Translations under genes and position numbers: made by a program | In this document: one piece after another, positions 1 to 36,637 of the stretch | How positions within the stretch are numbered: the stretch's first letter is position 1 | Layout of the letters: each line of letters starts with the position of its first letter | Origin: Candidatus Dojkabacteria bacterium | Lineage (GTDB): Bacteria > Patescibacteriota > Dojkabacteria > SC72 > JAHDCA01 | Length of the DNA stretch: 52,410 bases | Assembly (NCBI GenBank): GCA_027036675.1 | Contig: JALWDW010000008.1 | Location: forward strand, 1 to 52,410 | Direction: 5' to 3' | The notes under the pieces: generated by a model | What the model was told of the DNA's origin: nothing | The model's database searches: none | The model's input: the letters and a program-made list of their open reading frames with translations, nothing else

Positions 1-32
1 ATTTCACACCAGTCAACACACGCGAGGACTTT

Positions 33-4779: not shown

Positions 4780-4792
4780 AATTCACGAAGTT

Positions 4793-5179
4793 ATGGCAGA
4801 TAAAACATCCAACAAAACTCAGAAAGAAGCTCCCGCATCAAGGGCTTCGAAAGACGCATCAGCAACCGATTTTGCCGTGTTGGAGATCGGAGGTTCTCAA
4901 TTGATAGTCCATGTGGGTGACGTCTTTGAAGTGAATAAGCTGGATGCCAAAAGTGGTGATACTATCAAGACGAAAGACGTGCTCATGATCAAGGTCGGCG
5001 ACTCTGTACAGGTGGGTGAACCGCATGTGAAAGGCGCAGAAGTCGAGATAAAAGTTTTGGCGCAGACCAAGGGCAAGAAGATCAAAGCTTTTGATTACAA
5101 AGCAAAATCACGATATAGACGAAGGTGGGGATACAGGCCTCATCTTACACGTATTGAAATTACGCAAATAAAAGCGTAG
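4793..5179 (+). CDS. rplU: 50S ribosomal protein L21 with N-terminal extension
   Basis: FAVLEIGGSQLIVHVGD... core and C-terminal KAKSRYRRRWGYRPHLTRIEI. ATG at 4793 chosen; the track start at 4751 overlaps the upstream gene. Confidence 0.85.
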   Translation: MADKTSNKTQKEAPASRASKDASATDFAVLEIGGSQLIVHVGDVFEVNKLDAKSGDTIKTKDVLMIKVGDSVQVGEPHVKGAEVEIKVLAQTKGKKIKAFDYKAKSRYRRRWGYRPHLTRIEITQIKA

Positions 5180-5206
5180 ACTACACCATAAGCAAATTTA
5201 CGCGAT

Positions 5207-6424: not shown

Positions 6425-6522
6425 TTTCATATGTATAATACGCACGTTTGTCAAGGTATTGGCGAATGATGCAAATCAATGAGTTTGTTTTGCGTGGTAA
6501 TAAATTGTGATTGATATGTTTT

Positions 6523-6831
6523 ATGTCTAAAGTCGCAGCAGCAGGTAGTGTCGCAACGACGATGAATGTGGTCGGTAAGCGGCTTGGAGTTAAAAAATAT
6601 GCCGGGCAATCGGTTATCAATGGAAATATTTTGGTGAAACAGCGCGGGACCGTATTTCATGCCGGTATCGGTACAAAATTATCCAGAGACCACAGCATCT
6701 ATGCGGTGACTGCCGGTGTGGTGCGTTTTAGGCGTATGACTGGCCACAAGCGCAATAAATATTATGTGGACGTGGTCCCCGCCGAAGTTGCCTCGCCAAA
6801 GCAAAGCAAAACATCGAAATCGGCCGCGTGA
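6523..6831 (+). CDS. rpmA: 50S ribosomal protein L27 (divergent N-terminus)
   Basis: GKRLGVKKYAGQSVINGNILVKQRGTVFHAGIGTKLSRDHSIYAVTAGVVRF is the L27 core. ATG at 6523. Confidence 0.85.
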   Translation: MSKVAAAGSVATTMNVVGKRLGVKKYAGQSVINGNILVKQRGTVFHAGIGTKLSRDHSIYAVTAGVVRFRRMTGHKRNKYYVDVVPAEVASPKQSKTSKSAA

Positions 6832-6887
6832 TATGGGCCAACTTGCGTCCAAGTATTCTTTTTCATATCTCCCTGTTATAATCAGGT

Positions 6888-7634
6888 ATGGCAAAACAGC
6901 GTTTCGTACAAATTGAAAACAAAAACGCTTTGTTGGAACTTCTGGAGGACGGCAAACCCATCACCAGGCTGATCATCGCCAACAACGCTTACAAGGACGT
7001 CAAGACAAAAGCCATAGTGGAGCACGCAAGAAAAGCGGGTATCCCGATCGAACGTCGGTCACGTAAATCCATATCGCGAAGATCCAGAGTTTCCAGCAAC
7101 GAGAGTGTGATCGGATTTATGCAAATCGACAACCAATACTCTCTCGAGCAATTGCTCAGTCAGACATACGAAAACGGCGATATCCCTTTTTATATTATCT
7201 TAAACGAAATCAAGTACGCGCAAAACCTCGGCGCTATCTTCAGGACGGCGTTTGCCGGCGGTGTCAATGGCATTATCACCAATAAGCAGACCGGAAATTT
7301 GCTGAGCGATGAAATCATACGTATCTCCATGGGGACCGCTTTGCGAATACCCATAGTGGAGACCCATATATTCAACGCAATCAAAAGACTACGGAAGGAA
7401 GATATCTCAGTGTATGCCATGGATATGGAAGGTAAATCAATTTATAAAGAGAATTTGACCGGTCCGGTGGCGTTTGTTCTCGGGTCCGAAGATACCGGTG
7501 TATCTTCCAAGGTACTGGAAAGAGTGGACGGAGCATTGTCAATACCCATGAGGCGGGGGATCGGGTCGCTGAATGTAAGCATCAGCGGGGCTATAGTGAT
7601 ATACGAAAAATTGCGACAAGAGTTGCAATTGTGA
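6888..7634 (+). CDS. SpoU/TrmH-family RNA 2'-O-methyltransferase (RlmB-like)
   Basis: NLGAIFRTAFAGGVNGII, VLGSEDTGVS and IPMRRGIGSLNVSISGAIVIYE SPOUT motifs. Confidence 0.8.
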   Translation: MAKQRFVQIENKNALLELLEDGKPITRLIIANNAYKDVKTKAIVEHARKAGIPIERRSRKSISRRSRVSSNESVIGFMQIDNQYSLEQLLSQTYENGDIPFYIILNEIKYAQNLGAIFRTAFAGGVNGIITNKQTGNLLSDEIIRISMGTALRIPIVETHIFNAIKRLRKEDISVYAMDMEGKSIYKENLTGPVAFVLGSEDTGVSSKVLERVDGALSIPMRRGIGSLNVSISGAIVIYEKLRQELQL

Positions 7635-7655
7635 TTTGCATCAATCTCCGCCGAT

Positions 7656-8522
7656 TCAATCGTTGAGCATCTTCCTCGTCAAATCTTCAAGTTCTTCATC
7701 CGAATTGAATCGGATGATCATCTGCCCTCCCTTTTGCAGTTGACGGAAACGCACGGTATATCCAAGCTTCTTGGATAGCTTGTCTGCGATCGCCTTTGTC
7801 GAGCGAGTATATGCGATCACCTTCCTTTGCAGATGCTTGCGTTTGCCCATATTGATCTTCTTGACCATCCTTTCGGTGTCTCTGACCGATAACTGTCTTT
7901 TGATTACTATATTGCACGCGGCGATTAACGATGATTCACTTTCTATACCGAGCAACGCACGCCCGTGTCCTTCAGTGATACGGCCGTTGAGTACTGCGGC
8001 TCTGACTTGCGCGGGCAATTGTAGCAATCGGAGCTTATTGGTGATTGTAGATCGTTGCAGTCCCATTTTGCGGGCGATTTCTCTTTGGGTCAGACCAAAC
8101 TCGTTTTGCAGTTGCTCAAAAGCCGAGGCTTCTTCGAGAGGGTTGAGATCCTTGCGTTGAATGTTTTCTATAAGCGCGAGCTCCAACATCTCCTGCTTGG
8201 ATGCTTCTTTGATGACCACGGGGATTGTCTTCAATCCCATCTGCTGAGCGGCTCTGTACCTGCGCTCTCCGGCGATGATATAGTACATGCCCTTTTTGTT
8301 TGGATTAGCCGTGATCACAAGGGGTTGGATTATGCCGTGCTCTTGTATTGATTCGATGATCCCTTGCAAATCCTCCGGTGTAAATTGCATACGAGGCTGG
8401 TATGGGTTTGGCTCGACCAATGAAATGTCAAAAGACGGGTTGTATGCAGAATTCTCGTTTTGCATAGCGCCAGATGAAATCAGAGCAGCCAATCCTTTGC
8501 CGAGTGCTTGTTTTTCCGCCAT
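7656..8522 (-). CDS. parB: chromosome partitioning protein ParB/Spo0J
   Basis: IQPLVI, IIAGERRYRAA and an HTH (LTQREIARKMGLQRSTITN). Confidence 0.9.
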   Translation of the reverse strand: MAEKQALGKGLAALISSGAMQNENSAYNPSFDISLVEPNPYQPRMQFTPEDLQGIIESIQEHGIIQPLVITANPNKKGMYYIIAGERRYRAAQQMGLKTIPVVIKEASKQEMLELALIENIQRKDLNPLEEASAFEQLQNEFGLTQREIARKMGLQRSTITNKLRLLQLPAQVRAAVLNGRITEGHGRALLGIESESSLIAACNIVIKRQLSVRDTERMVKKINMGKRKHLQRKVIAYTRSTKAIADKLSKKLGYTVRFRQLQKGGQMIIRFNSDEELEDLTRKMLND

Positions 8523-8538
8523 AGTTTATTGTATCAGA

Positions 8539-9330
8539 TTATGTAAATCTTGTGATGAACTCCTGCGCCAACTTAGCATACGCGATGGCGCCATGAGACT
8601 TGTCATCGTATTGCAAGATGCTTTTTCCATGCGACGGGGCTTCAGATAAACGGACATTTCGCGGTATTATGGTTTCAAATGTAAGCTTAGGGAAATGCTC
8701 TCTCACCTCCGCCATCACTTGGGCCGAGAGCTTTGTGCGCGCGTCAAACATTGTCAGGATGATACCGCCCAACTCAAGCTTCGGATTTATGTTTTTCACC
8801 AAATTCATGGTGTTGGTAAGTTGCCCAAGGCCCTCCAACGCGTAGTATTCACACTGTATCGGGACGATCACATAGTCGGCAGAGTTCAGAGCGTTGATCG
8901 TAAGCAAACCCAATGAAGGCGGGGAGTCTATCAATACAAAATCAAAGGGTTCATGTAAGTCGTCCAAAGCCTTCCTCAACACGCCCTCCCTTGCCATCAC
9001 GTTGACCATCTCTACTTCAGCGCCAGCCAAGGATATATGAGATGGGACGATGGCCAAATTATCGATTTCTGTGAATGTGAAAACTTGGCTGATTGGTTTG
9101 CCGTTGATCAGGATATCATAAGTATTCAAATATCTGTTTTCCTCGCTTGCCGGATATTTCGACATATTATTCTGTTGAAAAAAACCTATACCCGAGGTGA
9201 GGTTCGCTTGAGGGTCCAGATCGATCAAAAGCACCTTCTTCCCGGCGTTTGCGAGGTATGCGCCAACATTCAATGCCGAAGTTGTCTTACCGACTCCACC
9301 TTTTTGATTGGCAAAAACAAGTGTCGTCAT
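8539..9330 (-). CDS. parA: chromosome partitioning ATPase ParA/Soj
   Basis: Deviant Walker A NQKGGVGKTT, LLIDLDPQ, VLIDSPPS. Adjacent to parB. Confidence 0.9.
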   Translation of the reverse strand: MTTLVFANQKGGVGKTTSALNVGAYLANAGKKVLLIDLDPQANLTSGIGFFQQNNMSKYPASEENRYLNTYDILINGKPISQVFTFTEIDNLAIVPSHISLAGAEVEMVNVMAREGVLRKALDDLHEPFDFVLIDSPPSLGLLTINALNSADYVIVPIQCEYYALEGLGQLTNTMNLVKNINPKLELGGIILTMFDARTKLSAQVMAEVREHFPKLTFETIIPRNVRLSEAPSHGKSILQYDDKSHGAIAYAKLAQEFITRFT

Positions 9331-9334
9331 AGTA

Positions 9335-9949
9335 TCAGTTGAGATTATAATGAGGTCCTGTGATGATCCTCATATTGTTAAACGGGAAATAAACGAAAAT
9401 TACTTCACCTTTGACAGCCTCCAACTCCACCGGTCCGAAAACTCTGGAATCCGTACTGTGAGGGCGATTGTCTCCCATGACGAAAATATGCCCCGCAGGT
9501 ACGGTGAACGGTTGACCCTCTGGTAGAGCCGGCCCCGGCATCGTCCGGACTGTGTCTGCAAGATAATCGCTTTCATCCAATTGCTCATTGTTGATATACA
9601 CATGTCCGTCTATGATCGCGATCTCATCTCCGGCCACTCCGATGACTCGTTTGATGTAATCCTCGGTAGGGGAGTGCTTGAAAATGATGACATCACCTCT
9701 GCGTGGCTCTCTGAGTTTGTAGATGATCTTGTTTGCGATGATATGCTCTTGGTTGCGAAATGTCGGCATCATAGATTGACCGTCAACTTGGTGTGGAGTG
9801 ATCAGCGTCAAGTATAATACGATACTGATGGCAAGAGCAATCACGATTGATTCGATACTTTCGAAAATGACGGATCCTACAGTCCCGAAAACGGCCGAAA
9901 CTCTTTCGAAGCCGGTTTTCTTATTTATATCCACGTCGTACATTCCCAT
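9335..9949 (-). CDS. lepB: signal peptidase I
   Basis: N-terminal TM, GQSMMPTF (catalytic Ser box), GDVIIFK, YIKRVIG, GDNRPHSTDSR. Confidence 0.85.
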   Translation of the reverse strand: MGMYDVDINKKTGFERVSAVFGTVGSVIFESIESIVIALAISIVLYLTLITPHQVDGQSMMPTFRNQEHIIANKIIYKLREPRRGDVIIFKHSPTEDYIKRVIGVAGDEIAIIDGHVYINNEQLDESDYLADTVRTMPGPALPEGQPFTVPAGHIFVMGDNRPHSTDSRVFGPVELEAVKGEVIFVYFPFNNMRIITGPHYNLN

Positions 9950-10040
9950 GAGCAGTTTGTTTCAAAATTCAGATTGACATAAGTATATCACTTCCTCCGG
10001 ATGGTGTAAGTACAATTTGCAGACAAATACAAAACGGGGC

Positions 10041-10760
10041 CTACAAATTGACTGAGACATCCATCTTTTCAAAAGCGTAAGTTACAAACTTGACTGCGAC
10101 GCATGCGATGAATATCGAGCCAATGAAGTCAATAGTGTAATGCGTACGTCCGGCTACCGACAGGAATATCAAATTTAGACTGAGGAGGATAGTCAACGCC
10201 ATCGACCACCATTTACGATGTGTGACTTGTATCAGGAGTAAACCCAATCCCATGACGACGGCCAGGTGTCCCGATGGGAATTCACCATGTATTGATGCGA
10301 AACTGTCCCATACATATTTCTGAAACAAACGGAGAAAAGTATCCAAAGAACCTTGTACAGTGTGTGGGGCAACAGTATGTGATGCTGCGGCGCGCCAATT
10401 TGCTTCTGTCAAGGGAAGCCCGAGAGGAGTAAGCGGTATCATCAAGGCTCTGAGTATGTAGATGACGCTTAATATCCATATTCCTTGGGCCACTGTCACG
10501 ACGCGCGTATCGGCTTTGAGTATCAATCCGGTTAACAGGAATATGGTGACAAGGTCGACGATATTGAAAAGCTTGAGGGCCCATGGGTTGAACGGCGTGA
10601 CAGAATGAAGTAAATCCGCCGATACGGCGAGTGGACCGAAATGGTTCTCTATGAAGTGCGATGCCGCAAGGTTGGCTCGACCACTCAAGAGTAATGCGAA
10701 TATCCCGAGGATCAGCAGTACATAATTTCTTGATGACGTGTTTTTTGCAATAAGTTGCAT
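10041..10760 (-). CDS. PAP2-superfamily (PAP2_C-like) integral membrane protein
   Basis: Polytopic. FPSGHLAVV and GRTHYTIDFIGS resemble PAP2 C2/C3 motifs. Start moved to ATG 10760 because the longer ORF overlaps tRNA-Glu. Confidence 0.5.
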   Translation of the reverse strand: MQLIAKNTSSRNYVLLILGIFALLLSGRANLAASHFIENHFGPLAVSADLLHSVTPFNPWALKLFNIVDLVTIFLLTGLILKADTRVVTVAQGIWILSVIYILRALMIPLTPLGLPLTEANWRAAASHTVAPHTVQGSLDTFLRLFQKYVWDSFASIHGEFPSGHLAVVMGLGLLLIQVTHRKWWSMALTILLSLNLIFLSVAGRTHYTIDFIGSIFIACVAVKFVTYAFEKMDVSVNL

Positions 10761-10808
10761 ATCCGGTTGACTATCTGTGTTTTGAGCAAGGACCGCTCGT
10801 GATGACTT

Positions 10809-10880
10809 TACCGCCACGGGGAATCGAACCCCGATTGCCGGGATGAAAACCCGGTGTCCTGACCGTTAGACGATGGCGGC
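10809..10880 (-). tRNA. tRNA-Glu(UUC)
   Basis: Hand-folded cloverleaf: acceptor GCCGCCA/TGGCGGT, anticodon stem CCGGG/CCCGG with loop TTTTCAT, T arm CGGGG-TTCGATT-CCCCG. 72 nt. Confidence 0.85.
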
Positions 10881-10912
10881 CTGGTACGTCAATACGACAA
10901 GGCGATTCTACA

Positions 10913-11185
10913 TTATTTCTTCCTGTTTGTTAAGAGAGCTTCTTCGCTTTCCAATGAGAGACGTTTGTACCGATTTTTCTTTTTGTCGTGGGTGAATCTG
11001 CGTCGACATTTGCATTGCAATACATCAACTCCCGGTTTGTAATCGTGTACGATAATTTCGGCTCCAGATAAAGGTTTCATACATCCTGGGCATACGCCCT
11101 TGCCGAGCAATACTTCTTGAAACGGCTTCAACACAAATTTCGGTTTACGTATCATTGCATTGTCAATGCACAGTTTAAGCGTCAT
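10913..11185 (-). CDS. small basic Cys4 zinc-ribbon-like protein
   Basis: CPGC...CKC pattern and Lys/Arg-rich tail. Lies between two tRNAs. Start moved to ATG 11185 to clear tRNA-Leu. Confidence 0.35.
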   Translation of the reverse strand: MTLKLCIDNAMIRKPKFVLKPFQEVLLGKGVCPGCMKPLSGAEIIVHDYKPGVDVLQCKCRRRFTHDKKKNRYKRLSLESEEALLTNRKK

Positions 11186-11197
11186 CACGATGCCATT

Positions 11198-11283
11198 TGC
11201 TGAAGAGAGGACTCGAACCTCCACATCCGAAAACGGATACATGGTCCTAAGCCATGCGCGTCTGCCAGTTCCGCCACTTCAGC
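11198..11283 (-). tRNA. tRNA-Leu(UAG), long variable arm
   Basis: Acceptor GCTGAAG/CTTCAGC, anticodon loop CTTAGGA, long variable arm, T arm GGAGG-TTCGAGT-CCTCT. 86 nt. Confidence 0.85.
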
Positions 11284-11295
11284 AAAAGTACTGGG

Positions 11296-11304
11296 AGTAT
11301 ATCA
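11296..11304 (-). promoter_or_regulatory. extended -10 (TGATATACT) upstream of tRNA-Leu
   Basis: The minus strand reads TGATATACT, ending about 12 nt before the tRNA 5' end. Same TGN-TATAAT style as other promoters in the window. Confidence 0.35.
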
Positions 11305-11331
11305 CAACCCGGACTTCGAACACACGTTCTG

Positions 11332-11869
11332 CATTCTAATTCCGATCGCAACAAGTCGGGGTTGAACCCCGGGCTTAAACCCCGGACTTGACAAAGGAAC
11401 CTTATCACCATGGGAATAATCACCAAGAAAATCTTGCGATTAATATTATTTTAATCGAAATTTAATGGCCAACTTACGTTGTCGTATAGGCGTTTACGAG
11501 TGCCCGTCGCTCTGGAGCGCGCATCCCGGGGACTCCGCGTATTCCTTGCAGACATGGCCTTTATCGATATTTTATAGCGACAGCGGACGATATAGCGTAC
11601 CTGAGTATAGGTGCAGAGCATGTTGACGTGTCATCGGTCGTATATTGAGAAAATGTCACTAAGAAAGCTCTGTCGCGACGCACAGTGTGCCGTGAGAACT
11701 GTAATTACGCGACATTTGTATATATCGTATACGCTCTATTTTGCATATTTGGCCGAGCCGAAATCTTGCCAACTATACCTACTACAACAGCGTTGCCACA
11801 CAATCAGTGGGTTCGAAGACCGGGTCGCAACCCCGACTTTGAATACCCGTTGCAATCGGAAATAGAATG
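11332..11869. repeat. element A: ~538-bp ORF-free structured intergenic element (candidate large ncRNA or MITE-like)
   Basis: 21-nt terminal inverted complement (19/21) plus an inner 11-nt perfect complement. Gap-free homology to 22289-22820. Confidence 0.7.
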
Positions 11870-11919
11870 TAGGAATTTGCGGTTCTGCACAACATTTGCG
11901 CAGGTTAAATCAATTTCAC

Positions 11920-11949
11920 TTGAAGAGGCTTATATTTGCTATTTATAAT
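11920..11949 (+). promoter_or_regulatory. sigma70-like promoter TTGAAG-18-TATAAT
   Basis: TTGAAG at 11920-11925 and TATAAT at 11944-11949, 31 nt before ATG 11981. Confidence 0.35.
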
Positions 11950-11980
11950 CCACTGTTCATCACATGACAATAGCTTGGCA

Positions 11981-12706
11981 ATGAAACGGAACGATTTAAA
12001 CAGGTTTACGGACCTGCACGATATACAAATGCAAATCATCAACGACCTGGCGAGGACAGGTCCGGCCACGTTTGGCGTATTGAGGCCGCATGACGTCGCG
12101 ACCGATCATTTCACATACCACATCAAAACAGTCATAGAAAAAGGGTTGGTAGCGGTGGATCGCCGTAACGGTAAGAAATACTACGTTCTCACGGAGCTTG
12201 GTAAACGGTTTGCGGATTCATTTGAGTTTTCAAAGAAGAAATTACTTGATCAAGGGATGATCATCACGGTATTTTGCGTATCGAAGGAGGTGAAAGGAGA
12301 AACAAAGTACCTGATGTCAAAACGGTTGTACGCGCCTTGGAAGGGGCATCTCGGATTCCCGGCCGGCAAAGTTCATTTTGGTGAAACAACTTTCGAAACG
12401 GCCAGACGGGAGCTTCTGGAGGAAACTGGCCTGGAAGCTCAACTGGAACTGCGGCAGGTCATTCATTATATTGATTTTGATGAGACCGGCCAGCTATTGC
12501 GTGATATCTATAAGTTTGTTTACGAAGGTAAAAACCCGCGCGGTGAGTTTCACCGGGTGGCCGACAATGGGCGTACCGAAAATTACTGGCTTACCAGATC
12601 GGAGATCGAGAGGCATAAGGTATATCCCGGATTTTGGGATGATTTTTTCATGTGGGGTAATGACGACTTCTATATCGAAAAAGTCAGAACGGTCGAGGGG
12701 TATTGA
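11981..12706 (+). CDS. winged-helix DNA-binding domain fused to a Nudix hydrolase
   Basis: N-terminal wHTH-like region (IINDLARTGPATFGVL...KGLVAV). C-terminal Nudix box GFPAGKVHFGETTFETARRELLEETGL. Confidence 0.7.
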   Translation: MKRNDLNRFTDLHDIQMQIINDLARTGPATFGVLRPHDVATDHFTYHIKTVIEKGLVAVDRRNGKKYYVLTELGKRFADSFEFSKKKLLDQGMIITVFCVSKEVKGETKYLMSKRLYAPWKGHLGFPAGKVHFGETTFETARRELLEETGLEAQLELRQVIHYIDFDETGQLLRDIYKFVYEGKNPRGEFHRVADNGRTENYWLTRSEIERHKVYPGFWDDFFMWGNDDFYIEKVRTVEGY

Positions 12707-12780
12707 TATTGCAAGTATTGGTGGACCAGGTGCCACCATACGTTGTATACTTCAAATGGCGCAGTTAGATTACAATACAT

Positions 12781-13470
12781 GTGCATATGAGGCTCGCATC
12801 TGACAAATGGGGACAATTGACGGATAACTTCGACATCACGGGGTCGGTCAAGCATCAAGACTCCGCAGATAATGTGGAAATAGCATGGCCTGTGATCATC
12901 GGTAATCTCCCCGACAGTGGAGAGGTAATCGATTTTGGTTGCGGAACCGGCGGTTTTTGTCATTATCTGCATGAGCTTGGCTTTTCGGTTGCTGGTATAG
13001 ACAATTCGCCGGGTATGCTGGACGTGGCAAGAAAACTTTTTCCGCAAATACGATTTTATCGATCCTGGGATAAGAGTGGATGTGGCGACGGGACCTTGGA
13101 TGCCGTAACCTGCGTGATGTCTCTTCAATTTGTACAAGACGTGGAAGATGTATTATCTCGTATAAGTAAAATATTGAAAAACGGTGGTAGACTTATCGTA
13201 GCTACATTTAACCCTGATTTTATATCGGAAGGCTTGAAGCAAGGGAACTTCTTTTCGCAAGAGAATGAAGGTTTATATTCCTTTGGAGATTTGAAAATAC
13301 CTACATACGGCAGGAGCGAAAAAGAGTATATAAGGATGGCTCGTGAACGTGGTTTGACGCATGTACGCACGTACTATCCGCCTTTCACTCAAGAATTCAT
13401 AGAAAAGTACTCACCGAAGTATCCTACAAACGTGCCGGAATTTATGATCATGGTGTTTGATAAAGCTTGA
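12781..13470 (+). CDS. class I SAM-dependent methyltransferase
   Basis: VIDFGCGTGGF motif I, acidic motif II (AGIDNSPGML), LKNGGRLIV. Confidence 0.75.
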   Translation: MHMRLASDKWGQLTDNFDITGSVKHQDSADNVEIAWPVIIGNLPDSGEVIDFGCGTGGFCHYLHELGFSVAGIDNSPGMLDVARKLFPQIRFYRSWDKSGCGDGTLDAVTCVMSLQFVQDVEDVLSRISKILKNGGRLIVATFNPDFISEGLKQGNFFSQENEGLYSFGDLKIPTYGRSEKEYIRMARERGLTHVRTYYPPFTQEFIEKYSPKYPTNVPEFMIMVFDKA

Positions 13471-13747
13471 GAATTTGAATTGATAGCCCTTGCTCTGGTT
13501 TCATAACCCTTTACAATTTTCGTATTGCATGGAAGCTCTGGTCGGCATTCCGGTCGCCAAAAGCATCCGTTAGACAATAATCGACTATAGGGTGTGCACA
13601 GCCCATACGGTTCCTTGGCATTTAAGGAAATGTTTATTTTCCGGTTTTCCTACCAAAATAATCCCGACGAATGGTTCGTGGCTTCTCTTGTTGAGCGACC
13701 TTCATTGCATGTGGCACGCATCGTTACTCACGGCTGGTTTAGCGTGC

Positions 13748-13776
13748 TTGCAACGCACTCTGAAATCTGTTATTAT
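13748..13776 (+). promoter_or_regulatory. sigma70-like promoter TTGCAA-17-(TG)TATTAT
   Basis: TTGCAA at 13748-13753, 17-nt spacer ending TGT, TATTAT at 13771-13776. About 50 nt upstream of ATG 13827. Confidence 0.45.
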
Positions 13777-13826
13777 CGGACAAAGACTGCTCTGCTCTTT
13801 TAATTAAATTTTAATAATTATCCATC

Positions 13827-16800
13827 ATGGTGATTTCACGTGTGATGCGAGTGCTCCGGAAGAACATTCGCAAGATAGTGTCAGTCATCACTGTATCAGT
13901 GATGTTGATGCAAAGTACGCCCGCCGTATTTGTCAGGGCGGCGACTGAAGACCCTACTGTATTTGGGGTTGGTGATGTTAGATTGGAGCCCGGAGACACG
14001 GTGCCGACGGTGACTGTGCATGCGACTTCAACCATAGATAATCTTGATCAGATATGTTTTGACCTACTGTTCACACCGCAAAACGGTGTGTCCACGATCT
14101 CCGCATCTTATTGTGCGGATATCCCCGGGGATACAAAGGATGCTGATATCGTCGCAAATGATGTTGTTAATTCTTTGTATATGGCCAGGTTCGGTACTTC
14201 CATGCCAACCGTGGTACCGGAGGATGTTTCAGCCAATTCCTCGTCACCAGCAGGTACGTACTCTTTTGAATATTGGGTGACTGATACTGGCAGTCGTACA
14301 AGTTCCCATCAGACGACAAACGTGACCATCGTGGACCCGGCGCCCGTAAGTTACATCACATCCCCTATGGATGGGGCGTACGTACACGGGACTGTGGATA
14401 TCACCGGATGGATTGATGATAATGCGGACGGAGTGATAAATGGTACGAGTAGCTATGGGCCGGAACATTATTGGCTGGTGGTACGAAATTTGAGTGGTAC
14501 CACTGTAGCAGGACCAGGTACGGTCAATGTACCACCTCCGGGGTTCCCTTTGAATGGTAGTAATCATGATGCTGTACTATATACGTGGAGTACCGCTACA
14601 CAACCTGATGGACAATACACTATAATATTTGCATCTAGGGATTCGGAAGATAATAGGAGTCAAGATACTGTAGTCAGCGTAACAGTCGACAATACCCTCC
14701 CTCAAACGAGCTTCACCTCTCCCGCAGACAATGACTTGTCGAATATGCCGTTTCAACTGGTCGGGAACTCGACCGACAATTTCGGTGTACAGACTGTAAC
14801 ATTGGAATACAGTGTGTCCGGGGCAGACGACTGGCACAGTATCGCCACATTGAATGCAAACGGGGATGCTGACTATGATTGGACATATACATGGACTCCT
14901 CCCGCTGACGGGGTTTACGATGTCAAAGCGTATGCCACCGACCTTGCTGGCAATACGGAACACACCGCATACGTTACAGGGTTGACTTACGACACGACTC
15001 CTCCCGCCGTGCCGACGGGACTGCGTCGCATAGCGCCCAACGAAGGGGGTAGGATTTATACATGTGGATCGTACAGCAAGATTCAACGGATGTGGCCGGA
15101 TTGGGACGACAACACGGAAGATGATTTCAATCACTATGAATATACATCCTTCAATGCTCCATATGGTGCGATAGGACTGCATCAGAGGGTATTCACCAAT
15201 TCAATATTTCAGTATAACGGCACTTGGATGCCTCAGGAAGGTACCTACGGATTTGCCGTCCGTGCGGTGGACGACGCCGGCAACGCATCCGCCTGGGCGT
15301 TGGGAGGCACTGAAACATTGGCTGATAGTTGTCAGATTACATACGATGATACCCCTCCGAGTGGAACGATTGATGCCATCAAATATGCAGGTGGGACGAT
15401 TGAACCGACCAAGTTTATGACAAATGCCAGTATGCCCACGATCGTAGGGACAGCGACTGACGACAACGCCGTTGGTTCAGTTTCGCTAAGTGTCAACGGG
15501 CATACATATCCCGCCACCGTTTCGGGCAATTCATGGGAAGCGACAGTAACCGACGTCATTCCTGAAGGTACGAATACGATGACTCTTACCGTATCGGATC
15601 AGGCGGGTAATACTACGACGGTGACAAAGAGTATATTTATCGACACTCATGCACCGACGGCGGTTTATCGACAATGGGACGGTACACAAGAAGTGACGGG
15701 GACCGTGCCGTATGTCAACGATTTAGCCAGATTATCGTTTACTGCTGAATATACAGATACAAGACCTTCATCTGGCTTGTATTGGGACTCTTATGTAATA
15801 TTTGAAGCGCAGGACGACGGCTCATTTAATTTTAGTCAAAATGGGAAACGAGCGTTCTGCGGTTGGCGAAGGGCACCGAACCTGGTCACATTGTCAGGTT
15901 CCAGCGTATACTCCTTGACAACGCCACAGCCGTTTAACAATTGTGTGGCGACTTTACCTGATGGAGAGTATTATATGACTCACCAGGTCTACGACACCGC
16001 GACCAGACAGGACATTCCATCTATCAACCAATTTAGAGATGTTTTAGGGTTGCATTTCTTTATGGACGCCACTCCTCCGACAATTGACGAGATCCCAGAT
16101 CAATCTTTCACCGAAGGACAATCAGTGAACCTGGGGCTTCTCGACGGTCTCGGAGTCTATGACAATATGGGGCTTGCCGATATCAATATCCATGTATCGT
16201 ACACGGATCCCGTGGGTATGACTCATACTCGTGATTACTCCCGTGATATACACACTATTGGTACGGGTGGCACGTTGAATGACCTTTACCCACTGATAGT
16301 CAACACTATATTGGGGCCGTTTGGTGTTACAGTCACAACCCCAGTCAACTTTGCCGATCACAATGCTATTGTGGACACATCCATCGTACCTGAAGGAAGT
16401 TATACCTTCACATACTATGTGACCGACCAAGCCGGAAACAGAAGCTCTACTCATGAAGTCAATATCACGGTTACCAACGAACCGCCCGTTGTAGTGCTGG
16501 ATGGTGATACTACGATAGACGAAGGAGACACCGCCACGTTCACGGGTTCGTTTACAGATCCAAGTAGCAACTTCAATACTGCATTTGGTGGGTTACTCGA
16601 CGATCATATGATGGATGACTCCCCATGGACTGCTTCCGTAGATTATGGTGATGGTGCAGGATGGGAAATTCTCGGTACTCATATGGTGCCGGAGACGGTT
16701 GAATCGATGTCTCATACATATGACAATGCAGGTACTTACACAGTATCGTTAAGGGTGTGCGAGTTTGATGACACAGTCATGTCTACGTGGCCGTTGCGGG

Positions 16801-17330
16801 TAGCTACCGCTGTCACTGGAGATGGTGAATGTACTACGGTGAGCAGGCAGTTGACGGTAAATGATGTCGTGCCTACAGTGTCGATCACAGCTGACCCCAG
16901 ATTGACCGTGGATGAAGGTACTGCGGTAACCTTGACTGCTGTCGGATCCGGAGGCAACGCCCCTTTGACTTACGCGTGGTCCGGAGATTGCAGTGGAAAT
17001 ACCACATCCGTGACTATGCCGACAGTTGCCGGTACATACACATGCGATGTGACTGTGACTGACGCTGATGGTGATACGGCTACCGATTCCGCCACCGTCA
17101 CTGTCAATGCCTCATCCGATACGGGTGATGTATTGGGCGCCACTCATGATCCCGATGGTACGACGGGTGACAACGGTTCTGCAGATACCGCATCTCAATC
17201 GGACAATCAGGGGGAAGTGTTGGGTACGACCGGGCGTGACTTGCGACCGGTGGTCTTGTTGGCTGTCTTGGCGCTCGTCCTGAGTGCGGGATACGTAGTA
17301 CGACGCAAGAGGCTTAGCGCGGAAAAATAG
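13827..17330 (+). CDS. 1167-aa cell-surface protein with tandem Ig-like/PKD-like domains and C-terminal membrane anchor
   Basis: N-terminal signal/anchor. Repeated D-x-T-x-P domain linkers (VDNTLPQ, YDTTPPAV, YDDTPPSG, IDTHAPTA, MDATPPTI). PKD-like TVDEGTAVTLTAVGSGGNAPLTYAWSGDC...TYTCDVTVTDADGD. C-terminal hydrophobic helix followed by RRKR. Confidence 0.8.
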   Translation: MVISRVMRVLRKNIRKIVSVITVSVMLMQSTPAVFVRAATEDPTVFGVGDVRLEPGDTVPTVTVHATSTIDNLDQICFDLLFTPQNGVSTISASYCADIPGDTKDADIVANDVVNSLYMARFGTSMPTVVPEDVSANSSSPAGTYSFEYWVTDTGSRTSSHQTTNVTIVDPAPVSYITSPMDGAYVHGTVDITGWIDDNADGVINGTSSYGPEHYWLVVRNLSGTTVAGPGTVNVPPPGFPLNGSNHDAVLYTWSTATQPDGQYTIIFASRDSEDNRSQDTVVSVTVDNTLPQTSFTSPADNDLSNMPFQLVGNSTDNFGVQTVTLEYSVSGADDWHSIATLNANGDADYDWTYTWTPPADGVYDVKAYATDLAGNTEHTAYVTGLTYDTTPPAVPTGLRRIAPNEGGRIYTCGSYSKIQRMWPDWDDNTEDDFNHYEYTSFNAPYGAIGLHQRVFTNSIFQYNGTWMPQEGTYGFAVRAVDDAGNASAWALGGTETLADSCQITYDDTPPSGTIDAIKYAGGTIEPTKFMTNASMPTIVGTATDDNAVGSVSLSVNGHTYPATVSGNSWEATVTDVIPEGTNTMTLTVSDQAGNTTTVTKSIFIDTHAPTAVYRQWDGTQEVTGTVPYVNDLARLSFTAEYTDTRPSSGLYWDSYVIFEAQDDGSFNFSQNGKRAFCGWRRAPNLVTLSGSSVYSLTTPQPFNNCVATLPDGEYYMTHQVYDTATRQDIPSINQFRDVLGLHFFMDATPPTIDEIPDQSFTEGQSVNLGLLDGLGVYDNMGLADINIHVSYTDPVGMTHTRDYSRDIHTIGTGGTLNDLYPLIVNTILGPFGVTVTTPVNFADHNAIVDTSIVPEGSYTFTYYVTDQAGNRSSTHEVNITVTNEPPVVVLDGDTTIDEGDTATFTGSFTDPSSNFNTAFGGLLDDHMMDDSPWTASVDYGDGAGWEILGTHMVPETVESMSHTYDNAGTYTVSLRVCEFDDTVMSTWPLRVATAVTGDGECTTVSRQLTVNDVVPTVSITADPRLTVDEGTAVTLTAVGSGGNAPLTYAWSGDCSGNTTSVTMPTVAGTYTCDVTVTDADGDTATDSATVTVNASSDTGDVLGATHDPDGTTGDNGSADTASQSDNQGEVLGTTGRDLRPVVLLAVLALVLSAGYVVRRKRLSAEK

Positions 17331-17387
17331 GCACCAGCTTAGCCCTTGGTATAAATGACATGGGGCCGGTAAGCTCTTGTAAATACA

Positions 17388-17417
17388 CGGGTGGGTAGTC
17401 CTGAAGACTCCCGCCCG
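17388..17417. terminator. bidirectional stem-loop between convergent genes
   Basis: CGGGTGGG-t-AGTC-ctgaa-GACT-CCCGCCCG followed by GTTGTTT. Lies between the 3' ends at 17330 (+) and 17444 (-). Confidence 0.5.
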
Positions 17418-17443
17418 AGTGTTGTTTGATGGACTTTACTATA

Positions 17444-18544
17444 TTATCTGGCCTCTTCCAAACGGTTTACCTGTGCGAGTTGTTCCACATCCTCGGATTT
17501 TGCTTTGTTCAATGTATAGTAAGTGCCTCTACCGGTCCCGTGAGCCTCGATATACCCTTCTTTCATGAGTTGTTTGAGGTCGCGAAACGCGGTCATAAAC
17601 GAAACTTTTGTCATTTTCGCATACTCTTGTCGGGTAATTTTGCCGAAACTTTCCAGGTAATCAAGTATCTGCAATTGCCGCGTATTGAATATGACGTGTA
17701 ATTTGCCTTGCTTGTGAACTTTCTTCATGAAAAGCGCCTTGTATGTGCTTGTCACAGTCAGCAGTTCAAGCGTGAAGGCGTACAAAAAGGCTTCTATAAA
17801 CATGGTGATATCGTTGTTGCGTTTGGCTATTTTAAACGCGTGTTTGAGATCGCTGTCTATGTGATTGAAGATGCGGACAACGGAGATCATATTGTGTGGA
17901 CTGTAATTCCACTCCTTAAGCTGTATCGTCATGAAAAGGGCCGATGTGATTTGATTGAGAGATTGGAGTGGCGCCTTGTCGATAAACTCGTACAACAGCA
18001 AAGCCAAGCGTATCAGGCGATGCTCCGGTGTCTTCGGGCGATTGAGGTAGGTGATCAGTGTTGAAAAATATGAATGCAGGTCATAATGATGCTGTGTGTC
18101 GCGCAATACGTACCAATTGTCAAACGCTTCGTTTGGCAACGCATCCGGTGAACGTAATTTCCCTATATCCCAGTCTTCCAGGAGCCCTCGCGCGAGCAAC
18201 TTGTTTAGGTGCAATAGGAGGTCCACCGATATCGGCATGGAAGTCGTACTGTCGTATTCTCGGATATAATCCAAGGCGTTGCGGTAATTGTTGTAGATAC
18301 GGTGCTCTTTTTTGGCCGTGGATATTAGGCGTCCTTTCTTGATGAGCTTTGCGCGATAAAGTCCGATATTTTCCCCGAGGAGCTCTGAGAGTTGCTCGAT
18401 CTCCTCTATATGCAGTTGTTCCAGGAGGTCGGCGACGTATTTTTGCGGTAGGGGCATGATCTTGATGCGGGCAATGCCGAGTTCTGCCTTGACGATATAG
18501 TCAACCATCAAATGTGTCAATGTGTAATTGGGTGATGTGTACAT
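17444..18544 (-). CDS. Fic/DOC-like protein with degenerate active-site motif and C-terminal wHTH
   Basis: Fic-like helical core. YEFIDKAPLQSLNQITSAL occupies the position of HPFxDGNGRxxR. C-terminal ITRQEYAKMTKVSFMTAFRDLKQLMKEGYIEAHGTGRGTYYTL. Confidence 0.5.
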   Translation of the reverse strand: MYTSPNYTLTHLMVDYIVKAELGIARIKIMPLPQKYVADLLEQLHIEEIEQLSELLGENIGLYRAKLIKKGRLISTAKKEHRIYNNYRNALDYIREYDSTTSMPISVDLLLHLNKLLARGLLEDWDIGKLRSPDALPNEAFDNWYVLRDTQHHYDLHSYFSTLITYLNRPKTPEHRLIRLALLLYEFIDKAPLQSLNQITSALFMTIQLKEWNYSPHNMISVVRIFNHIDSDLKHAFKIAKRNNDITMFIEAFLYAFTLELLTVTSTYKALFMKKVHKQGKLHVIFNTRQLQILDYLESFGKITRQEYAKMTKVSFMTAFRDLKQLMKEGYIEAHGTGRGTYYTLNKAKSEDVEQLAQVNRLEEAR

Positions 18545-18633
18545 ATTTGTTGATTTCCGACGATGTCCAAATCACTCCATAACCGACCTGTGTCGCCGAG
18601 CATGGAGTGTATGTGACGTAAAACAAAAACTTT

Positions 18634-18706
18634 AGCTGGAAATGAGACTCGAACTCATGACCTACTCTTTACGAAAGAGTTGCTCTACCAACTGAGCTAT
18701 TCCAGC
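18634..18706 (-). tRNA. tRNA-Thr(CGU)
   Basis: GCTGGAATAGCTCAGTTGGTAGAGCA..., anticodon loop TTCGTAA, T arm ATGAG-TTCGAGT-CTCAT. 73 nt. Confidence 0.85.
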
Positions 18707-19654
18707 AAATCATATTTGCCGTCTTTCCTGTCATGCGCGCTTATCGTAACATATTTCTCTGGGGAAGGGAAGAGGGCGGGGGGGGCGACCCCGGGCTTTG
18801 GTAGCATCCTTCGGGCGATAGGATGCGTACTACAGGTTGGTGGCGGTCTAATAGTTTGTTGGGCTGATGGTGTACTTACGGGCTTTGTACGAAGCCTGTA
18901 GCTTTTATTTCACAATTATTGCATGACTCGGCGAAGCCGAGTCATGCAGCCGCGAGTGCACCACTTCGGTAGAAAACGCCCAGAAGTCGGGGGTGAAGTG
19001 CTGCCGAAGAAAATTCGGCTGGCCAAAATATGGCGAAGTCATGGGACGTAGCTGCGTAGTTGAACACGATATCCCATACCTACAGGATAATACGAGACTT
19101 CGTTGATCGTTGCTGTCATGGGATCAGTACGTTTAGTGACAGGATATTTAAGGTAATCCGAGAAAGACAATGACAGACCCGGTTTACATCGTATCTTGCG
19201 TGTGTCCGTATTACCTCATACACAGCCATATCATGATATGGCGATAGTATCCGTGTCATGGGATTTACATGTCCCATCAAAGATTTTATGACGAAATGAC
19301 GTGTGATACCGCCCTTTTTCTTGGACAACAGGTGACATGACGATGATTACGAGTGAATCATGAATTTTGCATAACTAGGGGTGTTGCCATGGTGTTTCTT
19401 CTCTAAGGGTGGGACCCATGGTAGGACCGGAATCCCGGCGTCCATGTACGGCGCGTGTCCAATATACCGATGTACCGGAGTCTGCGCATATACGGGTGAG
19501 TAATGTACCATCAGGACCTTGGCTTGTCGCTGACGCGAATACTCTCGATCGTTTCACGGGGATTTGCGATAGACAATCCTGATCGTAGAGTCGGAGGCTT
19601 CACTGGGTGGGTAAGCGCGACTCCTGGCTGATGACATTAATCACAGGGAATGCC

Positions 19655-20215
19655 TCATTTGGTGATAAGCCGTAAAACTGTTTGTCTGTAAACGTCTGGA
19701 TCAATATGCGTAGTATTGACCGACCGGGCGGTCGCGAGAAAATCATGGGCGGTGATCAGCATAGTGGCCAAAGATACGGGGTCGATATCCACGAGCTCAC
19801 CAGCCTCAATCCCATCTTGGATGATATTCGCAACAAAACGGATATAATTGTTCAGATACTCAGTGGCTACCAGAGCGCGTATACTCTGGTGCGAATCATA
19901 AATCATGGCATATATGGCGGAGAACTCTTGTATCCCATCTGTCGGTTCGACGATGAGCTTCTCCAATTGTGCCAATGGCGATACAATATTGGCGATCAAT
20001 ACCTTGCTTCTGTCCAGCCGGTCCGCGGCGACATATCTGACAACCGAAATCATCAAGTCGTTTTTACTTGCAAAATAGGTATAAAAAGACCCTTTGCCGA
20101 TCCCAAGGACAGAACATAAACTCCGAACGGACAGGCGTTCAAGACCGTTTTGCATTATTAATTCGGTCGCTGTGTTTAGGAGCCCTTCCCTTGTAATCCT
20201 CTTTTTTTTGATCAT
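19655..20215 (-). CDS. TetR/AcrR-family transcriptional regulator
   Basis: N-terminal HTH (TREGLLNTATELIMQNGLERLSVRSLCSVLGIGKGSFYTYFASKNDL). ATG 20215 preferred over GTG 20224. Confidence 0.85.
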   Translation of the reverse strand: MIKKKRITREGLLNTATELIMQNGLERLSVRSLCSVLGIGKGSFYTYFASKNDLMISVVRYVAADRLDRSKVLIANIVSPLAQLEKLIVEPTDGIQEFSAIYAMIYDSHQSIRALVATEYLNNYIRFVANIIQDGIEAGELVDIDPVSLATMLITAHDFLATARSVNTTHIDPDVYRQTVLRLITK

Positions 20216-20239
20216 TGTGTACACGAATTATATTCACGG

Positions 20240-20255
20240 TTGACCGTGCGGTCAA
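20240..20255. promoter_or_regulatory. perfect palindrome TTGACCG-TG-CGGTCAA, candidate TetR operator
   Basis: 16-bp inverted repeat 25 nt upstream of the TetR ATG, in the divergent intergenic region. Confidence 0.45.
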
Positions 20256-20429
20256 GTATTTGAAGTATCTACCTGATAGCAGTCCAAATTTATATTAAAA
20301 TTTAAAATTCGGTTGTTTGTGATTTTAGAGTGTAGGCCGTGTTAGGTATGGGGTGATCGATATTGAATCCACAAGGATAATGAGACCTGACCGCATGGGC
20401 AGACAACGAATGCGGATAGAATATGTTTC

Positions 20430-20458
20430 TTGAGGAATCGCATATATCGTGCTATAAA
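20430..20458 (+). promoter_or_regulatory. sigma70-like promoter TTGAGG-17-TATAAA
   Basis: TTGAGG at 20430-20435 and TATAAA at 20453-20458, 8 nt before ATG 20467. Confidence 0.35.
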
Positions 20459-20466
20459 AGGAAGCT

Positions 20467-22288: not shown

Positions 22289-22820
22289 CGCGATCGCTAC
22301 AAGTCGGGGATGAACCCCGGGCTTAAACCCCAGACTTGACATGGAAACCTTATCACCATGGGAATAACCGGCAAGAAAATCTTGCGGTTAATATTATTTT
22401 AATCGGAATTTAATGACCAACTTACTGTGTCGTATAAGCGCTTGTGAGTACCCGTCGCTCTGGAGCGCACATCCTGGGATCTCTGCGTATTCCTTGCAGG
22501 CACGGTTTTTATCGATACTTTGTAGATATGGTAGATGGAACGATGTACCTAAACATACGTACGGAGCGGGTTGCTGTGTTGTCTGCCGTATCTTGAGAAA
22601 ATGTCCCCGAAAAAGCGCCTTTTCAGCGTCTAATGTGCAGTGAGAGCAGTGACCACACGGTATTTGTATATGTCGTATAGGTTCTGTTTTGCACATTAAA
22701 ACTGGGTGACACTTTGTTGACCAGCTGCATTACAACAGCGTTTTCGCCCAATCAGTGGGTATGAAGATCGGGTCCCAACCCCGACGTTGCATGCTCCTTG
22801 CAATCGGAAATAGGATTTAC
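22289..22820. repeat. element B: second copy of the ~530-bp ORF-free element
   Basis: Aligns to 11341-11872 at a constant offset of 10,948 with no indels. Begins right after the MFS stop codon. Confidence 0.7.
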
Positions 22821-22892
22821 GATGTTTTTGTGTAATATAACTTTTATGATATAGTTCGTGTCATCTAAGCTCATATTCACAAAATCGGAGAA

Positions 22893-29648: not shown

Positions 29649-30279
29649 CCGACAGGAGGTCGGGTCAAACTATTGAGTATTGGAAATGGTATGTACATGC
29701 CCCCAGGTTTTGGGATTTACTTCTTCGTCCTCGAATTGACCCTACGGTCGGGGAACTGCGCCTGAGGTATAAGATCTTATCTACTGTCGTAGTGGTCATC
29801 GATCTGTGTGGGTGCTAAATCTTCATTGGAAGATAGCCTATAGAAGAACGTTCTATCGAAGGAAACCTGAGGGGTAAAGCCATCTAGTGACCGAATGATC
29901 AGCTATAGGCCGTGTGTGAAAAACTAGTGACCAGGCGTTCAGTACGAGATTGGCAACTCCTGGAAGTCATACCCCGATAGTCAGTACGGTAACGACCGAG
30001 TGGTTAGTCCATGGTTGATGGTTTCCGGGGCTTATGCATGCAGCTGGTGTGCTGACGACCGGGTGGTCGTCTACGGTACTGTGCATACAAAACCTGCCGA
30101 CCGGGCGGTCAGGCGTAGTGACTGCTGGTGAGTACGAATCTCTGCGAATACGCTGTTTGCGAGCGACCGTGCGTTCACGGTATTCGCTACTTAAAATGGG
30201 ATCCCGATAGTATGGTCGATACAGCGATTCGACATGCTCGTAGTAGTATAAAGCTAAAGTGGCCTAGGTGAGACAACCG
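29649..30279. other. 631-bp ORF-free hairpin-dense spacer between convergent htpX and helD
   Basis: No ORF of 60 aa or more. At least seven GACC-N4-GGTC-like stem-loops and an 8-bp stem (30144-30151 with 30180-30187). Confidence 0.6.
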
Positions 30280-35084: not shown

Positions 35085-35125
35085 AAGGTTATCGAATGGT
35101 AAATTTACTTATCAAATTACTGGAT

Positions 35126-35134
35126 ATTATACCA
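35126..35134 (-). promoter_or_regulatory. extended -10 TGGTATAAT (minus strand)
   Basis: The minus strand reads TGGTATAAT, 41 nt upstream of the ATG at 35084. Confidence 0.4.
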
Positions 35135-35787
35135 CAAAACAGCCTATAGCGCTACCTAGCAATCGAAGCCGGGGTTGGACCCCAGGCTTGAACCCCGGGC
35201 TTGATGTGAAGGTATTGTTATCGTGAGAATGAAGGGTAGAAAAACAGGATTTTCAGGGGCTTGGCTATAGAAATTGTACAATCGGTTTATATTGTCACAC
35301 CAATCTTTTCAACGCCCTACCACACCGAAGTGAGTGATTTCCCATGACTACAAGGTTTATCCCAGGTTTCAATAGTTTTCCGCTCCCGTAGCGGGTAAGC
35401 CTATGTTTTTTTACATAGTCAAAGTAAGACATAATGACATTGTCCAATGACAACGGGTGTTTTACTTGGGTATGGAGTATTGCGATAACCGCTTTATTTA
35501 TATCTGAGGCTTCGTAAGTCCTACGAGAGGAATTTCGGTAATACTATTTTTTATCTAACAGTCCGGGGGATGCTTTTCTATATAGATGAAAACTTAATGA
35601 AAACTTCACATCCGATGTGAAGTATCAGCAGTGGCACCGCATCCGCAATCGTGGTAGCGACTGTGGGTGCGGTCTTAATGAAAACTTAGTCCTCGTTCCC
35701 CGCCGGGTCGTGAGTTGCCAGTGCTTGAATGTTGCCGGCGGGGCTCGCGATTGCTACTGCAGATGAAAATTTAATGAAAATTTCACG

Positions 35788-35932
35788 TCGGCTGGGGCGC
35801 CCATTATCCGAGGACCTTGACCTGTGGCGTGAGTAGAGCTTTTGTGGGTCCGCGGACTGGTTCCGTTGAGGAAGGTTTCCTTCGCGGATGAAGATTTAAA
35901 GCCTCCGGCGTAATTCCCCGACCGTAAGGTCG
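35788..35932 (+). repeat. 145-bp direct repeat, copy 1
   Basis: Identical to 36178-36322 except at 3 positions. Confidence 0.9.
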
Positions 35933-36177
35933 ATTGGGGATGAAGTAGCTCCCAAATCGTCAGGACGATGTGCTGAAGGTTGCTCAGCGGATTGCAGTAT
36001 GTCGATTTACCTGTGTGTAATGTATGTATGTTGTACTCGAAGCTACGGCATGATATGCGTTGAGAATAAATTTACATTCGGCAGTATTTTGGACGTTGAC
36101 GATATTCGAAAGATTTGGGACAAACGAAGTTTGTAAAGTCGATACCCCGACCGGCAGGTCGTGGGAGAGGCTTCATC

Positions 36178-36322
36178 TCGGCTGGGGCGCCCATTATCCG
36201 AGGACCTTGACCTGTGGCGTGAGTAGAGCTTTTGTGGGTCCGCGGACTGGTTCCGTTGAGGAAGGTTTCCTTCGCGGATGAAGATTTAACGCCTCCGGCG
36301 TAATCCCACGACCGTAAGGTCG
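36178..36322 (+). repeat. 145-bp direct repeat, copy 2
   Basis: Same as copy 1, 390 bp downstream. Differences are A/C, T/C and C/A near the 3' end. Confidence 0.9.
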
Positions 36323-36619
36323 GGGGACTGTAGTTGCGACCGCAGGTTGAAGCACGTCCTTCAATAATAGGCTCTGTCATTGGGATAAACCAATACAGGT
36401 AAGACAGTGTATTGCCATCAACTCCCGTCCATCCGGTATCGGTTGGGCGACTCCTCAAAGCCCACTGTCATTGTACAGAAGGTGTATTTGCCTACGTCCA
36501 GCCTTTTTGAGCCATCACCGGAAATCACGAATTCCGGGCCATGCAGCCTGTGGCCACAGTGCTTTGTCTCAAAGGGTGGGTTCCCATCCCGGGGTCGAGG
36601 CCAGGCTTCGCATTCCTTA

Positions 36620-36628
36620 TGATATAAT
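36620..36628 (+). promoter_or_regulatory. extended -10 TGATATAAT immediately upstream of proS
   Basis: TATAAT ends 9 nt before ATG 36638, which implies a leaderless or near-leaderless mRNA. Confidence 0.45.
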
Positions 36629-36637
36629 TTCTCCATT

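Follow-up and report, generated by a model that had tools for sequence, protein, structure and literature searches.

Two similar stretches of non-coding DNA, designated elements A and B, lie about 11 kb apart in a 52,410-nt contig of a Candidatus Dojkabacteria bacterium (JALWDW010000008.1; the whole contig was analysed and is referred to as the window), and the question that they raise is what kind of unit can lose about a quarter of its sequence identity without gaining or losing a single nucleotide. The alignment of A (11341-11875) with B (22289-22823) was gap-free by MAFFT, between about 11341/22289 and 11875/22823, and also by global alignment with ordinary gap penalties, in which the offset was constant at 10,948 bp and 408 of the 535 positions were identical. 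The blastn comparison, spanning 532 nt, returned 124 mismatches (76.7% identity) and, again, no gaps. The gap-free match claimed in a preliminary description of the locus, which had proposed a formal pairwise alignment as the check, was therefore borne out by all three methods. The six anchors that it quoted were all found in both copies (11352/22300, 11563/22511, 11645/22593, 11714/22662, 11783/22731, and 11853/22801), and its count of 48 matches over 77 central positions (11571-11647 vs 22519-22595) was reproduced.

The 127 mismatches, consisting of 85 transitions and 42 transversions, were distributed unevenly along the element (chi-square P = 5e-8). Identity was 87% in the first 215 nt (the 5' conserved module, 11341-11555 of A, + strand), 64% in the next 225 nt (the diverged central segment, 11556-11780, + strand), which nevertheless has the same length in both copies, and 81% in the last 95 nt (the 3' module, 11781-11875, + strand). 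The GC contents of A and B were 46.7% and 46.5%, respectively, and that of the whole window was 46.5%. When gaps were made very cheap, the aligner introduced 12 of them, compared with a mean of 12.8 for simulated pairs differing by substitutions only, so hidden compensating indels are not indicated.

The significance of the missing indels was calibrated by comparing the window with a sister strain (GCA_027024505.1 together with matching ENA and Logan contigs), which is about 97% identical. Ordinary intergenic DNA showed 60 substitutions and 5 indel events in 813 aligned nt between the strains, that is, about one indel per 12 substitutions, whereas coding DNA showed 318 substitutions and no indel in 13,046 nt. 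At the intergenic ratio, about 10.6 indels would be expected to accompany the 127 mismatches between A and B, and the probability of finding none is 2.5e-5 (about 3e-5), rising to 0.03 at the lower 95% bound of the ratio, which is the conservative end. Since the intergenic indel rate of the lineage predicts about 10.6 events where none was found, it is statistically reasonable to infer a length constraint. The complete absence of indels suggests that length or spacing may be selected along the whole unit.

Element A was found to be a 548-bp unit (11334-11881, + strand) that is missing from the sister strain. Window positions 2700-11333 corresponded to positions 1-8636 of the sister-strain contig L022, and window positions 11882-12510 to its positions 8629-9257. 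The empty site read ...CACAC GTTCTGCA CAACATTT... with a single GTTCTGCA, whereas the window read ...CACAC GTTCTGCA (548 nt) GTTCTGCA CAACATTT.... The alignment of the junctions placed the left copy of the duplicated sequence at 11326-11333 and the right copy at 11882-11889 (neither assigned to a strand), with an 8/8 match and 548 nt between them. As the sister strain lacks 11334-11881 and has one GTTCTGCA in place of two, A is a discrete 548-bp insertion with an 8-bp target-site duplication. The same breakpoints were present in two further sister-strain assemblies (L023 and L024), giving an empty site in three assemblies, and the filled site was present in the window and in L014, which came from a further sample. 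The insertion boundaries agreed with the limits of the similarity between A and B to within 7 nt at the 5' end and 6 nt at the 3' end. These results show that A moved, by insertion or excision, as a discrete unit of 548 bp accompanied by the 8-bp duplication, after the sampled strains had split. The insertion is upstream of a tRNA-Leu gene (11197-11284, minus strand), at a distance of 42-49 nt from its 5' end, and also upstream of a promoter-like site of a NUDIX gene.

The ends of A form an imperfect terminal inverted repeat of about 57 nt. Its left arm (11334-11390, + strand) begins with TTCTAATTCCGATCGCAAC... at the first base after the duplication, and its right arm (11801-11867, + strand) carries a 9-nt insertion. 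The local alignment of the 5' end with the reverse-complemented 3' end scored 56, compared with 17 +/- 3.3 and a maximum of 35 for shuffled sequences. A further 14 nt (11868-11881) extend beyond the long inverted repeat at the 3' terminus and end in GGAATTTGCG, which matches the 5' tip in inverted orientation at 7 of 10 positions as counted by eye. The long-range helix between the ends that had been described earlier was recovered as a 12-nt helix, perfect in A and with two uncompensated mismatches in B.

Several other differences between the strains were observed in the same part of the window. About 1 kb (12511-13507), comprising the last 65 codons of the NUDIX gene together with a whole methyltransferase gene (12787-13470), is absent from the sister strain, where the NUDIX protein has 176 aa as compared with 241 aa in the window. 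Further to the right, window positions 17870-20460 were compared with positions 1-4050 of the sister contig L011, which has an ORF of 1303 aa or more upstream of the 190-aa and MFS genes and lacks the tRNA-Thr gene, the 950-nt spacer, and the TetR gene of the window. Because the gene content upstream of the MFS gene differs in this contig, the interval between A and B has been rearranged between the strains. The 950-nt spacer adjoining the tRNA-Thr gene (18707-19654) lacks ORFs of at least 80 aa and gave no hit in Rfam; it carries one CCCCGGGCTT and one AAGTCGGGG and shows no wider similarity to A or B. A third copy considered at position 18984 was rejected as a 9-mer coincidence only.

Element B (22289-22823, + strand) is an older copy present in both strains. 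It is flanked by genes for an MFS transporter and a class-I glutamine amidotransferase, beginning right after the stop codon of the former. The first ~9 nt of A are absent from its 5' tip, and no target duplication was recognisable around it, the best candidate matching at 6 of 8 positions, which is within chance expectation. Its inverted repeat is weak, with a score of 34 that falls inside the shuffle range. The loss of the 5' tip, the duplication, and a clear inverted repeat indicates that B is the older and probably an immobile copy. Several contigs of other assemblies start inside B, which may reflect extra copies or merely mixed strains.

The copies share a GC-rich hairpin module near the 5' end. 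In A (11353-11391, + strand) it consists of AAGTCGGGG followed by the tandem 13-mers ACCCCGGGCTTAA and ACCCCGGACTTGA, and a motif scan located the corresponding hairpin and 13-mers of B at 22301-22339 (+ strand). A partial copy, designated C, was detected at 35160-35245 (+ strand; nhmmer E = 3.4e-7). The module common to the three reads AAGYCGGGG and then two tandem 13-mers ACCCCRGRCTTRA; six matches to the 13-mer were found in the window, all within A, B, and C, against 0.33 expected. The similarity of C to A and B was confined to this module and the ~40 nt after it, with nothing beyond. The hairpin stem is AAGTC...GACTT in A and B and AAGCC...GGCTT in C, a single compensatory T-A to C-G change recognised by eye. 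The 52-kb window accordingly holds two full copies and one 5' fragment.

Partial copy C is contained in a 1.5-kb, ORF-poor, and Rfam-negative region (35085-36637) upstream of the prolyl-tRNA synthetase gene, and this region has repeats of its own. A 151-nt sequence occurs twice with 97% identity (35782-35932 and 36172-36322), and GATGAAAAYTTAATGAAAAYTTCAC motifs recur as judged by eye. The sister strain lacks 35596-36170 (575 nt), and contigs of other assemblies break within 35085-36637. A 1.46-kb element bounded by C-like inverted ends (35158-35196 and 36578-36617) was considered and rejected, since its score of 36 was below the shuffle maximum of 41. In addition, a 45-nt inverted match of 80% (29734-29778 vs 35891-35935) links a 630-nt ORF-free region (29649-30279) to the repeats at 35-36 kb and looks like a second family of non-coding repeats.

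Next, the divergence of B between the strains was compared with that of its surroundings. B differed at 8 of 535 positions with no indel (1.5%), far less than other intergenic DNA (60/813, 7.4%; Fisher P = 3e-7), and its divergence was also lower than that at third codon positions pooled over both flanking genes (P = 0.013). The 69-nt spacer to the right of B contained 4 substitutions and a 7-nt indel, the latter located 2 nt past the end of the similarity between A and B. The low divergence of B hints at a function, for the host or for the element, beyond that of selfish DNA. However, the adjoining MFS gene shows a divergence of just 1.25%, and against the third codon positions of this gene alone B does not stand out clearly as slower. 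The unusual similarity of the adjacent gene between the strains weakens the case for a function of B, as the similarity may be regional.

A and B are likely to represent a family of small, non-coding, and non-autonomous DNA transposons of about 548 bp that resemble MITEs. A DDE-type transposase encoded elsewhere would act in trans, binding the inverted ends and integrating the element by staggered cutting with an 8-bp offset. Among the putative sites that it recognises are probably the GC-rich hairpin in its subterminal position and the tandem 13-mers. The better-kept 215 nt at the 5' end and 95 nt at the 3' end could be the cis sequences needed for transposition, or they may be promoter- or terminator-like.

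Definitions of MITEs include small size, inverted repeats, a short target duplication, and decay of the duplication in older copies (PMC11602168, PMC10969869), and the size range in prokaryotes is 50-800 bp (PMC11602168). Element A, with 548 bp, no coding capacity, an inverted repeat, an 8-bp duplication, and both filled and empty sites, agrees with this description. Where an inverted repeat of at least 10-15 bp is expected, A has one of ~57 nt, albeit imperfect, and that of B is degraded; where a duplication of 2-10 bp is expected, A has 8 bp and B has none recognisable, as is expected for old copies (PMC10969869).

When compared with the prokaryotic MITEs Correia of Neisseria, QMITE1/2 of Coxiella, Chunjie of Geobacter, and MITEAba12 of Acinetobacter, A and B are similar in being small, lacking a transposase, and occupying intergenic positions near gene starts. 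They also share with these the terminal inverted repeats of A, a duplication kept in the young copy A and lost in the old copy B, and polymorphism between strains. They are different in several respects. The inverted repeat of A is imperfect and long (~57 nt), with a 14-nt offset at one end, unlike that of typical MITEs. Their GC content is the genome average, unlike that of AT-rich MITEs, only two to three copies are known, and no parental IS is known. Membership of a multi-copy family is at most putative, the known copies being two full ones and one fragment, all in one species. Finally, MITE families normally vary in length, QMITE1 from 39 to 400 bp and Chunjie from 178 to 235 bp (PMC10969869), whereas A and B are 24% diverged and yet of equal length. 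Divergence of this extent without an indel is not explained by a plain decaying MITE, and the foremost candidate explanations for the strict length are that transposition depends in cis on the whole unit and that the host uses the element as a regulatory platform.

The source of the transposase was searched for in the window and in sister-strain contigs. No transposase gene is encoded in the 52-kb window, and the search did not yield an autonomous element whose ends match those of A and B; the one IS encountered in the lineage, which is of the IS256 type, has unrelated ends. This IS, present in the sister strain, is 1051 bp long (L037 6993-8043) with a perfect 24-bp inverted repeat GGTTTAATTTACAAAACGTGTTGG and an 8-bp duplication GGTTTTTA, and it encodes an IS256-family transposase of the Zn-binding variant (NF048019, 276 bits). 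Its empty site is at window positions 42128-42135. The lineage therefore has active transposition that makes 8-bp duplications. Members of the IS256 family generate duplications of 8-9 bp, and the 8-bp target-site duplication is common to this IS and A; unlike the IS, A and B encode no protein. As a parent of A and B the IS was rejected, because it shows no similarity to their ends or interior and only the duplication length agrees. Elements derived from IS200/IS605 insert without target-site duplication and have subterminal hairpins at both ends in direct orientation. An origin from this group, which includes PATEs and carriers of omega RNA, was ruled out by the 8-bp duplication and the mutually inverted ends of A.

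The reach of the family was examined in several collections. The exact-pattern scan of viral contigs gave no match, and that of the GTDB genomes (species representatives) gave no relative, with five chance matches consisting of tandem 13-mer hairpins in unrelated high-GC genomes. Two exact-pattern scans of JGI metagenomes likewise gave no relative, the first being without a match and the second with six chance 19-mers, and blastn against phage and plasmid collections returned no match to A or B. The species of the window is known only from tundra-soil assemblies. For the amidotransferase next to B, identity to other recorded proteins does not exceed 58%, and the nearest named homologues, from Candidatus Kaiserbacteria and Nomurabacteria of the candidate phyla radiation, are about 50-53% identical. 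In more distant relatives reached by synteny through this gene (55-58% identity), the neighbourhood was not conserved and the element was absent.

In the unrelated high-GC genomes, the tandem 13-mers CTTGAACCCCGGG occur at L007 3591-3623, L008 813-841, L009 5479-5508, and L010 3887-3913, in Gemmatimonadota, 'bacterium HR33', and Lysobacterales. In L007, L008, and L010 they are followed by an inverted GCGCCCGGGGTC, and the sites in L007 and L008 lie in short intergenic gaps. They share nothing else with A and B and are for this reason regarded as convergent; they are probably REP-like. The 5' module of A and B (AAGYCGGGG with ACCCCRGRCTTRA) resembles REP and BIME palindromes as a GC-rich repeat that can form a hairpin. 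REPs are units of 20-40 nt without target duplications, whereas the hairpin of A and B occupies only a subterminal position in a 548-bp element that transposes in one piece.

Among the alternatives to a MITE-like transposon, the one that survives best, doubtful as it is, holds that the host has co-opted B, and possibly the entire family, for cis-regulation, as a platform on which the phasing of sites would forbid indels. It might act as an array of protein-binding sites, as the terminator of the upstream MFS gene, or as the promoter of the downstream amidotransferase gene. The low divergence of B between the strains relative to other intergenic DNA, and to the spacer on its right with its 7-nt indel, is consistent with such a platform, with the reservation that the adjacent MFS gene is also little diverged. 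A and B also point the same way, each preceding a + strand gene, by 105 and 69 nt, respectively, and MITEs that carry promoters are documented (PMC10969869). Near the 3' end of A the scan reported TTGAAT-18-TAGAAT, the equivalent of which in B, TTGCAT-18-TAGGAT, was seen by eye and was not reported by the scan. On the minus strand of the 5' module, TTGGYC-16-AATAAT is conserved, as found in A by the scan and in B by eye. However, these promoter-like matches are weak (9/12) and went unreported in B by the scan. Moreover, the NUDIX gene of the sister strain keeps a better site, TTGAAG-18-TATAAT (11920-11949), without A, indicating that A is not needed there.

A combination of mobility and function is also conceivable, in which A and B would be a mobile, length-locked regulatory or RNA cassette of an undescribed kind, with the whole 0.5-kb interior under purifying selection for exact length. 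The module of such a cassette, an RNA from the 5' 215 nt or a phased protein-binding platform, would have been spread by transposition around a small genome. We regard this as unlikely.

Somewhat less likely still is a gene for a structured non-coding RNA, about 535 nt long and perhaps carried by a mobile unit, whose fold would fix the length such that substitutions are tolerated and indels are not. The absence of indels despite 127 mismatches agrees with this idea, as do the compensatory change in the 5' hairpin between C and the two full copies and the single-sequence minimum-free-energy z-scores of -2.3 to -3.5; that stability, however, comes largely from pairing of the inverted ends, and the minimum-free-energy folds of A and B differ. 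Structure conservation was tested with RNAalifold against column-shuffled alignments, a test whose power is limited with two sequences. The structure conservation index (SCI) of the whole alignment was 0.60 on the + strand and 0.57 on the minus strand, compared with 0.59 +/- 0.04 and 0.58 +/- 0.04 for the shuffled alignments (z = +0.25 and -0.27). One window on the + strand, 11421-11540, reached an SCI of 0.81 against 0.66 for shuffles (z = 1.55), whereas the central windows were below random on both strands. A stable fold conserved in both copies was confined to 11341-11460 (z = -3.7 and -3.2 in 120-nt windows against shuffles). No Rfam match was obtained for A or B at the gathering score or at E values up to 10, the only hits in the window being its four tRNAs, and scans of A and B found no conserved promoter or terminator pair.

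In size, non-coding nature, intergenic position, and conserved length, A and B are similar to the large bacterial RNAs OLE, ROOL, GOLLD, and HEARO/omega RNAs and to ORF-less group II introns. Unlike these, they have no Rfam match and no conserved fold past the first 120 nt. An 8-bp target duplication is, in addition, unlike the mobility of IS200/IS605-type elements or introns. That the fixed length results from a conserved fold is not supported by these data. The constraint on spacing or architecture put forward in the preliminary description consequently holds in part: the lack of indels is statistically unusual and a length constraint is a fair reading, but a conserved RNA or a fixed architecture along the whole element is not supported, the SCI being equal to that of column-shuffled alignments. 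The mobility of the elements was not part of that description.

It is very improbable that A and B are what is left of a duplicated coding gene, or that they contain a small ORF conserved by selection. The absence of indels is typical of coding sequence, and an ORF of 53 and 75 codons starts from the same ATG in the two copies (11465/22413). However, each frame of both copies contains 3 to 10 stop codons, and these are of two or three kinds, so that reassignment of a single stop opens no frame. Non-synonymous differences far exceed synonymous ones in every jointly open segment (25 vs 5 in the frame of the shared ATG), and the 3-nt periodicity of mismatches is not significant (47/48/32). The concatenated six-frame translation of A and B had no match among 5.8 billion proteins, and an exact look-up of the ORF products of A (11611-11865) and B (22394-22696) returned no called gene in the collection. 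The stops in every frame and the non-synonymous excess in both copies agree with the earlier statement that no reading frame is conserved.

Equally improbable is that A and B descend as diverged direct repeats from a segmental duplication of great age, or that they mark the two ends of an 11-kb island (11.3-22.8 kb). Their direct orientation at a distance of 10,948 bp and the tRNA gene adjoining A would fit, but island repeats would be identical at integration and would have no inverted ends of their own, and no integrase or recombinase is encoded between A and B. The sister strain lacks A by itself, the duplication of 8 bp being clean, and retains most of the DNA on either side and a large part of the interval (11882-12510 and 13508-17869), which excludes the 11-kb island.

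In summary, element A is a documented case of the recent transposition of a non-coding element in an uncultured soil bacterium. It provides exact ends, a target duplication, and an empty site, and can thus serve as a seed for hunting the missing transposase. For genome scans, the lesson is that sister strains should be checked for empty sites before diverged repeats that align without gaps are called RNA genes. If the zero-indel pattern holds over more copies, it would mean that selection on length can act inside a MITE.
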